The position numbers were made by a program, and so were the translations under genes. From NCBI RefSeq assembly GCF_003334315.1, contig NZ_QOWR01000067.1: a stretch of 23,487 nt of DNA. One strand, given 5' to 3'. The notes below the pieces were generated by a model. It saw only the letters and a list, made by a program, of their open reading frames with translations, was not told the origin of the DNA and searched no databases. Shown here in pieces: positions 1-9,974 of this stretch (position 1 is the first letter of the stretch; every line of letters begins with the position of its first letter). The DNA is from Escherichia coli (lineage in GTDB: Bacteria > Pseudomonadota > Gammaproteobacteria > Enterobacterales > Enterobacteriaceae).

Positions 1-382
1 GTCCATTTCCGCGCAGACGATGACGTCACTGCCCGGCTGTATGCGCGAGGTTACCGACTGCGGCCTGAGTTTTTTAAATGGCGGAAAATCGTGTTGAGGC
101 CAACGCCCATAATGCGGGCGGTTGCCCGGCATCCAACGCCATTCATGGCCATATCAATGATTTTCTGGTGCGTACCGGGTTGAGAAGCGGTGTAAGTGAA
201 CTGCAGTTGCCATGTTTTACGGCAGTGAGAGCAGAGATAGCGCTGATGTCCGGCGGTGCTTTTGCCGTTACGCACCACCCCGTCAGTAGCTGAACAGGAG
301 GGACAGCTGATAGAAACAGAAGCCACTGGAGCACCTCAAAAACACCATCATACACTAAATCAGTAAGTTGGCATCATCACCT
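1..382 (-). mobile_element. IS1 insertion sequence, partial (left inverted repeat at 344..382; element continues past window start)
   Basis: Bases 344..382 match the reverse complement of the IS1 left terminal inverted repeat as I recall it, with one mismatch. The insA ORF lies inside, and bases 1..60 read as the reverse complement of the insA-insB junction. Identity from memory, not searched. Confidence 0.85.
51..326 (-). CDS. insA: IS1 InsA protein (transposition regulator), 91 aa
   Basis: The 91-aa translation ([37 protein letters not shown]...) matches IS1 InsA as I remember it, including the zinc-finger-like Cys pairs. Confidence 0.9.
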
Positions 383-1569
383 AATGCATGGAGGTTTTCC
401 CATTCATCCTTAGAGATGTTATCTTTACTTGCTTCGAAGTCTTTTGCAGTGAGATGTATATCTTCTGGATGGATTTGTTTACGTTCTTTTGTTACTGGAT
501 CTTTAATGAATGGAATCAAAACCTGACCTTGCTAATAGCCAGGGATACCACCTTCTATATCTTTACTGATCTTCGCTCGTATATCAGCAGAGGGATAATC
601 CAGGTCATTTTTACCACTACCCCCAATTCCCATAAAGTTAAAGGTATAATCAGGAATGATATCGATACCAAATTTTTTAGCATCTTTAACCAATGCAATA
701 AAATCCTGCAAATCTCCCATTGGATTATGGATGGTACAAAGATCTTCGGGTTGATAAGCATGAAACCAGTAACCCTTTTCTTCTTCGGGAGTTTCTGGTC
801 CGTCGGCGCGGAAAGTTGTCACTGGAGGGATTTGTATATACCCATAATGGCAACGTGCAAATTCAGACATATTTTCTCTGATCTGCTGGTAGGTGGCATT
901 AAAAGCATGAATAATCGCTTCGCCAGGTTTTTTGGGGGTGATGATTTCACATTGTGATTTCTGAACAGCAGTAAGAGATTTACGCTCAAGTGTTTGCCGT
1001 AGATGTTCTGGATTGATTAATATTTTAAATGTTTCTTGCTGTCCGGAAGGTGACGTCACGTTAATATTATATACATCGGCTGCCAGCTCATAGTCAGGAA
1101 TGTTAATAGCATATGCAACATACTTATCTTTTGGGGACGGTTTGTCAGATATAATGTGAGTGAAATGTTCAGCTGGACCATACTGATGAACACCGCTGTT
1201 ATCACCTCTTTCAATCATTGTATCTCGTTGATAAACCCATGTTTTTCCTTCTCCTATCCTGTCTGGCGCTGTAATGCTACGCTGTGCTGCTTTATTCAAC
1301 TCTCGATAAGTTGTATCTGGAGAAAGGGAAATTTTATAATCGTTTTTTAACAGATCATTAATAACTTTTTCTGCGTGAAAAGTTGATATAATTTCTCTGT
1401 CTTTTAATCCTTGAGGGTAAACTCCACAAGAATTAATAATATTTGTTATACAGTTTAGATATTCTAATGTATTTAATTTGGAATTTAGATCCCCGTCAGT
1501 AATGTTCCATGATAACAATGTGGGGTTGTCGATAGGTAAATTTCTGGGTCCTGGTTTTATAGAAAACAT
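383..1569 (-). pseudogene. Alpha-amylase (GH13) family-like enzyme gene, disrupted: in-frame TAG at 532..534 and 3' part removed by IS1 at 382/383
   Basis: ORF 532..1569 (345 aa) has an ATG at 1567..1569 with a GAGGA Shine-Dalgarno about 8 nt upstream. Near its C-terminus is GDLQDFIALVKDAKKFGIDIIPDYTFNF, which resembles the GH13 conserved region I context (amylosucrase-like D-x-x-x-N-H). After the TAG the same frame stays open for 50 more codons (QGQVLIPFIKDPVTKERKQIHPEDIH...) until the IS1 end. Family assignment is from motif memory only; by position this may correspond to ygaQ of K-12. Confidence 0.5.
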
Positions 1570-2128
1570 AATAAAGTTCCTCTAATGGTAGAGTAATATG
1601 ATGTATACGGAAACATAAAAATGTTTAATTGTTGTGAAAGTAATTGCAAACAGATGTCCTACTTTTATCCAATATTTATATGGAAAAGGATAATGCTTAA
1701 ATCTGTTTTATTAATTATCGATGTGGTCTGGAGAGGCAACTGTCAAAAATCGCTCATACGAAACTAATGATTAGCAGAATAAGATCTATGAAAGAATATA
1801 TTGCTATACGAAGTTTATTTTTATGGAGTGAAAAGTAACAGATATCATAATGATGCGAAAACTCTTCAGCTAATGTAATAAAGTTATATTATTAGATACA
1901 AAATCATTACAAAGTATCATTGAATCGATGATAACTATAGATAGTGCTAATTATTAACATTTGCTTGTTGACTGCGAGTATCGACTTTGCGAATGGAGGC
2001 GGTGTCGGGTTTTATGTCGCGTGTAATCACGACCCAAGGTGAATGGGAACGCATAAAAATCTGTTATTTACATCATATGATCATCATGTTTATTGCGTGG
2101 TTTATAAGTATTGTTATTGCACACTCAA

Positions 2129-2204
2129 GGCCCTTTAGCTCAGTGGTTAGAGCAGGCGACTCATAATCGCTTGGTCGCTGGTTCAAGTCCAGCAAGGGCC
2201 ACCA
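2129..2204 (+). tRNA. ileY: tRNA with CAU anticodon, ileX/ileY type (tRNA-Ile2, lysidine-modified), 76 nt including CCA
   Basis: GGCCCTTTAGCTCAGTGGTTAGAGCAGGCGACTCATAATCGCTTGGTCGCTGGTTCAAGTCCAGCAAGGGCCACCA. The 7-bp acceptor stem pairs perfectly (GGCCCTT/AAGGGCC), the anticodon loop is CTCATAA and a GGTTCAAGTCC T-arm is present. It is nearly identical to the E. coli ileX sequence as I recall it; a CAU anticodon alone cannot exclude tRNA-Met. Confidence 0.8.
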
Positions 2205-9814: not shown

Positions 9815-9828
9815 CCATCAACGAAAAA

Positions 9829-9850
9829 GCCCACATCTGTGGGCTTTCAT
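9829..9850 (+). terminator. Rho-independent terminator of the autotransporter gene
   Basis: GCCCAC-atct-GTGGGC hairpin 15 nt after the stop, followed by TTTC; an A-run precedes it, so it could act bidirectionally. Confidence 0.55.
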
Positions 9851-9974
9851 GTTACCAGGAGCCGCGGCTCCTTTGCGTATCCTTTTATGTCTCCTCACCG
9901 TCTGGTCGGTGTTTTGCTGAGACTTCTAACTTCCTGTTTTTGTTGGTGTTGTCCTTACACCGTCCAATCATGAT

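Follow-up and report, generated by a model that had tools for sequence, protein, structure and literature searches.

Organization of the interval between glaH and ssrA

The window, that is, the whole stretch of Escherichia coli DNA that was analysed (23,487 nucleotides), contained the following features from its first position to the tmRNA gene.

1..381, minus strand: IS1, left end only, with insA at 51..326, an inverted repeat ending at 381 and the start of insB'; inserted in ygaQ
382..1569, minus strand: ygaQ', pseudogene of an orphan alpha-amylase-family protein, truncated by IS1, with codons 1-396 of 750 left
1570..2128: AT-rich spacer between the divergent genes ygaQ and ileY, 31.3% GC
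2129..2204, plus strand: ileY, intact, a second copy of the tRNA-Ile2 gene (anticodon CAU; RefSeq tRNA-Ile)
2158..2204, plus strand: the 3' 47 nt of ileY, the core duplicated by integrating elements (from the repeat in strain C012)
2205..2954: AT-rich non-coding stretch, 37.2% GC
2955..4328, plus strand: ypjCB pseudogene, K-12 ypjC plus ypjB, DUF5507 plus DUF5508 (NCBIfam NF050179, Pfam)
4584..4670, plus strand: IS3 transposase relic, HTH_21 region, 87 bp (87.5% nucleotide identity to IS3 copies; weak match to Pfam HTH_21, E=0.021)
4668..4829, plus strand: pinH', central piece of a serine DNA invertase of phage type (match to positions 47-102 of the 145-position Pfam Resolvase model, E=1.6e-7)
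5240..9814, plus strand: ypjA/ehaD, intact type Va autotransporter adhesin of the AIDA-I/Ag43 group, 1524 aa (RefSeq WP_024238665.1)
9824..9974: conserved spacer beside ssrA, 151 bp, with a hairpin at about 9828-9846; kept even where the whole block is absent
9974..9989: core at the ssrA 3' end used by CP4-57-type elements for attachment, 16 nt, in single copy, which means an empty site
9975..10337, minus strand: ssrA (tmRNA), core gene and right landmark, found in 5426/5426 genomes

This map agreed with the RefSeq annotation of 100%-identical strains and with the K-12 map. The segment was colinear with the ygaQ'–ileY–ypjC/ypjB–pinH'–ypjA region beside ssrA of E. coli K-12, with 98.5% identity over 9.6 kb, and the genes of K-12 MG1655, ypjA (b2647), pinH' (b2648), ypjB (b2649), ypjC (b2650), ileY (b2652) and ygaQ' (b4462), had the same order and orientation as in the window. 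ileY and ypjC/ypjB were 100% identical, and the stop in ypjCB and the codon-346 stop in ygaQ were common to both strains. K-12 differed from the window in a prophage of 22 kb, CP4-57, that separates ssrA from ypjA (the site in the window is empty), in an additional stop at codon 111 of a ygaQ that lacks the IS1 cutting the gene in the window, and in about 2.7% of ypjA. Positions 1..9974 are thereby the well-known part of the E. coli chromosome that runs from glaH to ssrA and is dispensable. All of the locus has been annotated or published before, and it is ordinary and well documented.

The initial annotation had listed an IS1, the tRNA and ssrA, the two AT-rich intergenic stretches, two nonsense-interrupted genes, a possible invertase relic and a large adhesin, all of which were recovered at the positions given above (IS1 as an end in reverse orientation), with both interrupted genes (ygaQ at 532-534 and ypjCB at 3435-3437) labelled "internal stop" by RefSeq. 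A possible integrase relic, also proposed there, had to be dropped: six-frame translations of 2205..2954 gave no match to protein families or NCBIfam and no tyrosine-integrase relic, and the sole "integrase-like" scrap was the 87-bp IS3 fragment. A relaxed Rfam search of 1..5300 returned the tRNA only. The PADLOC search for defence systems gave zero matches, in line with the initial annotation, which saw no intact defence or secretion system; the second half of that statement holds for multi-gene systems only, since an autotransporter on its own amounts to a full type Va secretion device.

The composition of the segment set it apart from its surroundings. Positions 382-5239 had a GC content of 36.9%, against 50.4% in the core part of the window, and the GC3 of the genes there was 27-31%, against 45-64% for core genes. 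The exception was ypjA, whose GC content of 49.1% is near the core values, so that this gene cannot be called foreign on composition alone. The description of the segment as accessory and compositionally foreign, variable in presence and visibly decaying, with nonsense codons, IS1, the IS3 scrap and the invertase scrap, was supported.

IS1, ygaQ and ileY

IS1 was identified from an InsA-like open reading frame and its sequence, and on near-identical DNA RefSeq gives a transposase of IS1. The window holds the left inverted repeat and all of insA; the remainder of the element, and a target duplication if there is one, would lie beyond its edge. The exact junction between IS1 and ygaQ was present in one piece in none of the 5426 complete E. 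coli genomes; the insertion is private to this strain and recent. Matches of 100% coverage to the IS1 end elsewhere were IS1 copies at other positions and did not represent the same insertion.

Comparison of codons showed that ygaQ is interrupted by a change of TGG to TAG at 532-534 (codon 346, which is TGG in intact alleles); the gene is further cut by IS1 at 381/382. RefSeq labels the remnant as "alpha-amylase family glycosyl hydrolase, internal stop". Intact alleles were found in O145:H28 and AR_0013, and in other E. coli lineages the dN/dS of ygaQ was 0.14-0.23, which shows that the gene is under purifying selection where it is intact. Its dS was 0.06-0.10, compared with 0.09-0.24 in the flanking lhgO and glaH. 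A dS resembling that of the flanking core genes, together with the low dN/dS, speaks for vertical inheritance of ygaQ within E. coli. Homologues of ygaQ were confined to Escherichia, and the E. albertii copy had 60% amino acid identity. The spacer at 1570..2128 was also partly kept in E. albertii, with 83% identity over 89 nt and 75% identity from 2055 onward.

The tRNA gene was identical to K-12 ileY at 76/76 nt. An ARAGORN call of tRNA-Met was set aside in view of this identity and of the RefSeq assignment as tRNA-Ile. The CAU anticodon of tRNA-Ile2 reads AUA once it is modified with lysidine, and the acceptor-stem pairs C4-G69 and C5-G68, which are determinants for TilS, were readable in the sequence. 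In this strain ileY is probably functional, as an extra tRNA for reading the rare AUA codon. AUA was used at 12-25 per 1000 codons in the islet genes, compared with values of mostly 0-4, and at most 19, in the window's core genes.

Both RNA genes are genuine integration sites that are used in other strains, and both are empty here. In strain C012 an intact ileY was followed by an island of about 56 kb with a tyrosine integrase, then by the 47-nt ileY repeat and then by ypjCB. According to the literature, ileX and ileY share an attB, and SpLE1-like elements, ter islands and phage 186 make use of it. At ssrA, both CP4-57 junctions of K-12 overlapped on the 16 nt at 9974..9989. In some strains the ileY and ssrA sites were occupied simultaneously. 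In the window, by comparison, att-type repeats of the ileY or ssrA 3' ends were found neither inside the block nor at its borders.

ypjCB, the recombinase fragments and ypjA

The single reading frame of ypjCB was broken by a change of CAG to TAG at 3435-3437 (codon 161). The two halves matched the NF050179 family with E values of 1e-93 and 6e-169; since the TAG splits the gene and neither half attains the 650-bit cut-off, ypjCB was classified as a pseudogene of this family. Intact alleles of 449-457 aa were common, and the dN/dS of the gene was 0.65. In an exhaustive search of 1.84 billion representatives, ypjCB behaved as an orphan family, with Escherichia-like matches only and one spurious match to a PA14 repeat. 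Both ypjCB and ygaQ are thus taxonomically restricted orphans, with 33-38% GC. When species-representative genomes were scanned for YpjCB, the only matches were two contigs that are contaminants ("Planococcaceae" and "Arthrobacter"), a weak negative for other Escherichia species, and therefore gave no polarity for gain versus loss.

Other searches with YpjCB gave little. Pfam returned DUF5507 and DUF5508 only and no effector family, the profile search of the PDB gave nothing, and the AlphaFold model, with a mean pLDDT of 37.7, was too poor for use. YpjCB matched PHROG 30093, a family with no assigned function, and had no match in GenBank phage genomes. The idea that it is a decayed type III effector akin to Salmonella PipB2, based on a pentapeptide-like stretch and on what we take to be synteny between ssrA and the gab genes, was rejected for want of support.

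Downstream of ypjCB, the 54-residue pinH' fragment had 67% amino acid identity to the Fels-2/SEN8 phage DNA invertases (E about 1e-15) and is labelled by RefSeq as "recombinase family protein, partial". It aligned to the catalytic Resolvase domain of the Hin/Pin/Gin/Cin serine invertases of phages, which act as switches of tail-fibre or flagellar phase. Unlike these enzymes, it had no catalytic N-terminus or serine region and no C-terminal DNA-binding domain (HTH), and it was bordered by stops and the IS3 scrap. The fragment is thus incapable of invertase activity. The relic formed by IS3 and pinH was the same in 3054 genomes and in all the annotated carriers that were inspected. The idea that pinH' lies in an invertible segment with a promoter, upstream of ypjA, was considered and rejected: no sequence matched the consensus of the 26-bp hix/gix-like crossover sites, the core motif occurred at chance level, and the sole inverted repeat was one 16-nt pair (4187/5308), which lies inside coding sequence and is about what chance would give.

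ypjA was large and intact. Its one uninterrupted open reading frame of 1524 codons contained the complete type Va architecture: signal peptide, a passenger rich in repeats, a linker rich in Pro and a C-terminal β-barrel. The barrel matched TIGR01414 at residues 1081-1524 (E=9.7e-98), the passenger contained ten AIDA-type repeats, and the linker was encoded by 12-nt repeats at 8780-8887. With the AIDA-I/Ag43 group, which includes YpjA/EhaD and the paralogue YcgV, the protein shares the signal peptide, strand-loop-strand repeats, Pro-rich linker and full barrel. It scored below the equivalog cut-offs for both Ag43 and AIDA-I and is therefore placed in a subfamily of its own. In the literature, which concerns YpjA of K-12/EHEC, a review assigns the protein to group 4 of the biofilm-forming autotransporters. 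In this strain YpjA is probably a working, self-exporting surface adhesin, with expression that is probably poor.

Distribution of the block and the empty site

Comparison of strains, which the initial annotation had suggested for defining the insertion boundaries, gave exact borders. The variable block begins 136 bp outside the stop of ygaQ and ends 10 nt after that of ypjA, and homology to ST131 resumes at 9824. The empty site of the ST131 type consists of glaH, 683 bp and ssrA. These 683 bp hold a 333-bp filler, which indicates a replacement and not a clean insertion or deletion. Among 5426 complete E. coli genomes, ypjA was present in 2441, ypjCB in 3020 and ileY together with its flanks in 2867, as counted by megablast, which may miss very divergent alleles; glaH was present in 5378 and ssrA in all 5426. 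Parts of the block were thus found in 45–56% of the genomes, and 47% of genomes had only ileX and no ileY. The 345-bp "ypjA" matches in B2 strains, which might have been taken for remnants of the locus, were actually the paralogue ycgV near minE.

The block was lost through IS1 in E. coli B and F1022, and the closest relative, strain AR Bank #0346, carried an IS1-linked deletion reaching ygaC. Partial decay was observed in O157:H7, O145:H28 and AR_0013. Loss of ileY through IS-mediated deletion is already described in the literature.

In E. albertii the order was ssrA, followed further on by tRNA(CAU), a 517-bp AT-rich spacer, the ygaQ homologue and glaH. Homology to E. albertii stopped at 2526, which is the border between an old ygaQ–ileY module and a layer specific to E. 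coli. No counterpart of 2527..9823 was present in the E. albertii genome, which has unrelated genes there. By this comparison, ygaQ–ileY is an old resident module, at the same locus in E. albertii, and not debris of mobile elements, and 2527..9823 alone acts as the later, E. coli-specific layer. The polarity of the empty allele of the B2 type, with the block lost or never gained, is based on this one outgroup genome.

Origin of the interval

We consider a two-layer explanation of the glaH–ssrA interval, with erosion of both layers, to be likely. The older layer, up to about 2526, would have consisted of the divergent and AT-rich ygaQ and ileY, located between glaH and ssrA already in the common ancestor of E. 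coli and E. albertii, and would then have been inherited vertically by E. coli. The younger layer, 2527..9823, would comprise the orphan ypjCB, the IS3 scrap, the invertase scrap of P2/Fels-2 type and ypjA, and would belong to E. coli only; because all of its carriers have the same relics, it is probably older than the split of the carrier lineages. The AT-rich part may have been silenced. No part of the block is an active mobile element, and erosion would proceed by ordinary processes: nonsense mutations particular to single lineages, insertions of IS elements, and deletions, mediated by IS elements or not, through which roughly half of the species lacks the block wholly or in part. The two attachment sites are vacant in this strain, and the private IS1 has newly truncated ygaQ.

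Taken literally, the initial annotation makes all of 1..9974 layered mobile-element remnants that arrived by site-specific integration at the tRNA and ssrA, with one working adhesin. The low GC content, IS1, the IS3 scrap and the phage-type invertase scrap point that way, as do the absence of the block from about half of the species and the proven use of both RNA genes as attachment sites, which are sometimes both filled. Known occupants of such sites are CP4-57, Fels-2 and SopEPhi, which use ssrA, and SpLE1-like elements, ter islands and phage 186, which use ileX/ileY; the segment likewise lies between two attachment RNA genes. Like the RNA-gene islands of E. coli and Salmonella, the segment combines atypical base composition and codon usage (save in ypjA), variable presence between conserved flanks, and remnants of a recombinase and a transposase. 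Unlike them, the block has no integrase, no att repeats and no sign of mobility: no integrase gene or relic was found, its mobility genes are two scraps, of IS3 (87 bp) and of an invertase (162 bp), and a recent IS1 that is unrelated, and each RNA-gene 3' end is in single copy, with no partial copy at either border. The block also does not stop at the RNA genes; it runs past the tRNA to take in ygaQ and ends 151 bp before ssrA, so the claim that two hotspots bound it stands for the reality of the sites and fails for their position. The ygaQ–ileY module, syntenic in E. albertii and probably older than the species, with ygaQ under purifying selection and with a dS like that of its core neighbours, was not accommodated either, and the tRNA would be cargo and not a border. 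Accessory character, decay and the IS and invertase scraps remain from this reading, which as a whole we regard as unlikely. That the whole block is ancestral E. coli chromosome, never an island, and looks accessory through non-essentiality and repeated deletion agrees with the synteny of ygaQ–ileY in E. albertii, substitution rates in line with those of the flanks, the identical gene order and relics in all carriers and the documented IS1-mediated deletions, but is highly improbable given that 2527..9823 has no counterpart in E. albertii, that ypjCB and ygaQ are AT-rich restricted orphans and that the phage invertase and IS3 fragments show passage of foreign DNA.

Within the two-layer explanation, a doubtful extension is that ileY is itself cargo, a spare AUA decoder that has been passed on together with orphan genes rich in AT and in AUA from a time before the divergence of E. 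coli and E. albertii. As a smaller variant of this reading, pinH' may be the remnant of a P2/Fels-2-type prophage that brought ypjCB and/or ypjA.

The significance of the locus beyond bookkeeping is small, as all of its genes are named in K-12 and both RNA genes are published attachment sites. The useful products are a precise delimitation of the variable block, an actual empty site, the frequencies of the states in 5426 genomes, and the distinction between ygaQ–ileY as an old Escherichia module and ypjCB–ypjA as specific to E. coli. The interval is a textbook type of example of a dispensable region that is eroding, and it cautions that a tRNA within an AT-rich block need not mark the border of that block. 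If ileY were indeed cargo, horizontally acquired genes of high AT content would be measurably restricted in their expression in the lineages that have lost it, about 47% of E. coli.

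Gene content of the segment

The window is E. coli chromosome. In a megablast search of 5,426 complete E. coli genomes with positions 1..10400, many strains had the segment in near-identical form. The gene order of the segment (1..9974) and its flank, taken from the RefSeq annotation of two strains 100% identical to the window over the shared part, was IS1, the alpha-amylase-family pseudogene ygaQ, tRNA-Ile, ypjCB with an internal stop, a partial "recombinase family protein", ypjA/EhaD, ssrA, smpB, and core genes. The K-12 MG1655 record has the identical order ygaQ', ileY, ypjC, ypjB, pinH', ypjA; 382..9974 was colinear with K-12 at 98.5% identity, and ileY was identical. 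In MG1655, however, the 22-kb cryptic prophage CP4-57, absent from the window, lies between ypjA and ssrA. The segment is thus the K-12 ypjA-ygaQ interval minus CP4-57 plus a private IS1.

Features located in the window
1..381, reverse orientation, left end of IS1 (insA ORF 51..326, inverted repeat ending at 381)
2129..2204, plus strand, tRNA gene (ARAGORN and Rfam)
4584..4670, IS3 scrap (87.5% identity to IS3 copies)
~4668..4829, Resolvase-domain fragment, an invertase relic (E=1.6e-7, model positions 47-102 of 145; six-frame Pfam scan of 4329..5239)
9975..10337, minus strand, tmRNA gene ssrA (ARAGORN and Rfam)

The tRNA, labelled Met by ARAGORN, is tRNA-Ile2 (ileY, anticodon CAU), a mislabel also remarked in the literature. 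ygaQ contained an in-frame TAG at 532-534 (codon 346; TGG in intact alleles) and was then cut by IS1 at 381/382, and ypjCB was a single reading frame split by a TAG at 3435-3437 (CAG in intact alleles). The invertase fragment, immediately preceded by a weak HTH_21 match in the same scan, shared 67% identity with DNA invertases from two P2-like phages, Fels-2 and SEN8 (E about 1e-15). ypjA is unbroken over 1524 codons and encodes an autotransporter that has ten AIDA-type repeats and a full beta-barrel (TIGR01414, E=9.7e-98). Imperfect tandem repeats of 12 nt (8780-8887) underlie its Pro-rich linker (PNPKPDPKPDP...) and are the likely source of allele length variation (1524 aa here). Just upstream of ypjA, RefSeq places a "hypothetical protein" of 39 codons (WP_001120794.1, 5056-5175), which gave no match in a family search; it could be spurious, or else a leader peptide.

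The IS1, AT-rich stretches, nonsense-hit ygaQ and ypjCB, invertase relic and adhesin listed in the initial annotation were therefore real, and the "possible integrase" was not, as six-frame searches of 2205..2954 yielded no tyrosine-integrase relic. The same annotation saw no intact defence or secretion system; a search for defence systems gave no match, in agreement, but an autotransporter alone makes up a complete type Va secretion device.

The window's exact IS1/ygaQ junction occurred in 0 of the 5,426 genomes and is thus a private, recent event. In the closest relative, AR Bank #0346, IS1 lies in ygaQ about 165 bp away from this position and is joined to ygaC', indicating a deletion of ~15 kb. 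At least six further complete genomes had independent IS1 insertions at differing ygaQ positions; this recurrence fits the preference of IS1 for AT-rich targets.

Composition, distribution and borders

GC content was 36.9% at 382..5239 (31.3% and 37.2% in the intergenic stretches 1570..2128 and 2205..2954), 49.1% in ypjA, and 50.4% in the rest of the window. GC3 was 27-31% in ygaQ and ypjCB vs 45-64% in core genes, and the rare AUA codon occurred 12-25 times per 1000 in islet genes vs mostly 0-4 (up to 19) in core genes. Presence, scored where one place in a genome matched 80% or more of the query, was 2441 of the 5,426 genomes for ypjA, 3020 for ypjCB, 3054 for the IS3/pinH scrap, and 2867 for ileY with both flanks, compared with 5378 for glaH and its upstream region and 5426 for ssrA. 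The paralogue ileX was the sole copy in genomes without ileY and its flanks. By composition and distribution the segment is accessory, as had been proposed.

The glaH-ssrA gap is only 683 bp in an ST131 chromosome, which was aligned to a full-block strain. ST131 homology ended 136 bp past the ygaQ stop codon and restarted at window 9824, 10 nt past the ypjA stop; a 333-bp filler replaced the 10,643-bp block, and this allele was present in 1103 genomes. The variable block therefore takes in ygaQ and ileY, and with 151 bp of conserved spacer left it does not touch ssrA, so the earlier view that the tRNA bounds the islet fails. A hairpin just past the ypjA stop (9826-9848; about 14005-14030 in locus L009) was retained in genomes without ypjA, with a compensatory stem change (GCCCAC/GTGGGC vs GCCCGC/GCGGGC) and a T run following on the minus strand; it may be a terminator for ssrA read-through rather than for ypjA. 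In strain W224N, which carries the empty-site allele, three small genes (L006, its locus, 21838-23708: hypothetical, STAS-like domain protein, hypothetical) separate a prophage integrase from the ssrA-derived junction; they may form an accessory or defence module carried by a phage.

A third state, glaH, IS1, truncated integrase and ssrA, was found in two strains, E. coli B and F1022, and represents an IS1-mediated deletion, as described in the literature for strains B and W. Partial decay of the block is common: in O157:H7 ypjCB is frameshifted and ypjA reduced to its last 753 bp, and in O145:H28 and AR_0013 ypjA is IS-truncated.

Two attachment sites

Both RNA genes are integration sites, and both are empty in the window. 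The two junctions of K-12 CP4-57 overlap on window 9974..9989, present here as a single copy. ypjA directly adjoined ssrA in only 1386 genomes, so about 43% of ypjA carriers have an insertion at ssrA. At the other site, ileY of strain C012 is intact and is separated from ypjCB by a ~56-kb island, which carries Ag43, type I restriction-modification and contact-dependent inhibition genes and a tyrosine integrase, and then by 47 nt that repeat the 3' end of ileY. One other assembly had both sites filled: an integrase island occupied ileY, and a 186-like prophage lay beyond ypjA. In the literature, ileX and ileY are a common attB for SpLE1-like elements, for ter-operon islands (location given as "tRNA-Met, ypjC-ygaQ") and for phage 186, and ssrA is the site for Fels-2 and SopEPhi. 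Together with the nonsense codons, IS hits and relics, the CP4-57 and C012 insertions bear out the description of a decayed, composite region with two hotspots. Neither the ileY nor the ssrA 3' end had a second copy within the segment or at the segment's far border, and the block thus shows no trace of entry by site-specific integration.

Age of the layers

YgaQ homologues were confined to Escherichia, the E. albertii protein being 60% identical. In the one E. albertii chromosome compared (CP117650), smpB and ssrA are followed by 2.4 kb holding ykgR/ykgM/ykgO-like genes, then by a tRNA gene with anticodon CAU on the opposite strand, an AT-rich spacer of 517 bp, a ygaQ homologue, and glaH. Nucleotide homology with the window took in ygaQ (68-71%), a portion of the spacer and, at 75%, the tRNA plus the 320 bp downstream of it; it broke off at window 2526 and returned only at ssrA. 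The divergent pair ygaQ-ileY thus predates the species, and 2527..9823 (ypjCB, the IS3 and invertase scraps, and ypjA) is E. coli-specific. With this synteny and no att repeats, the reading in the initial annotation of layered mobile-element remnants around one surface protein does not hold for the whole segment.

The slot beside ssrA holds different cargo in each species: ypjCB to ypjA in E. coli, and ykgR-, ykgM- (L31 paralogue) and ykgO-like (L36 paralogue) genes in E. albertii (locus L015, 7000-9400). The E. albertii ileY counterpart (L015, 9408-9483) had five differences from E. coli ileY, including a compensatory 6:67 pair change and a C at position 54 instead of the near-universal T, so this copy may be impaired.

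Within E. coli, ygaQ was intact in O145:H28 and AR_0013, with dN/dS of 0.14-0.23 and dS of 0.06-0.10, similar to its neighbours lhgO (0.09-0.14) and glaH (0.14-0.24); judged from these sequences, the block looks vertically inherited. The core gene glaH, which adjoins the block, is itself unusually divergent among strains, and between K-12 and strain TOE3 its dS was 0.18, yet that of ygaQ only 0.015; this divergence points to recombination breakpoints and an exchange of alleles at the block edge. Constraint on ypjCB (dN/dS 0.65, alleles 80-100% identical) is much weaker than on ygaQ. ypjCB is also an orphan, matched only by Escherichia-like fragments among 1.84 billion representative proteins. 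Short contigs in two species-representative assemblies, one a metagenome-assembled genome under the label Planococcaceae and the other labelled Arthrobacter agilis, encode E. coli YpjCB at 87-100% identity; in both it is almost certainly E. coli contamination. The invertase relic was common to every annotated carrier examined, so the damage predates their divergence.

Function and class of the region

No system operates in the segment. Two of its genes are likely still working, ileY as a spare AUA decoder and ypjA as a self-exporting adhesin; a review groups YpjA with biofilm-forming autotransporters. We infer transcriptional silencing of the AT-rich part and, for the invertase scrap, an origin in a P2-type prophage formerly at ileY or ssrA. 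The segment is shaped by point nonsense mutations, by IS1, IS3 and IS629 insertions and by IS-mediated deletions, with prophages and islands now and then captured at the two attachment sites.

The reading of the segment in the initial annotation is thus partly supported. In location, composition and variable presence the segment resembles tRNA-associated genomic islands, but it lacks two of their defining marks, att repeats and an integrase, and differs in being partly older than the species. It is better named an old, decaying region of genomic plasticity.
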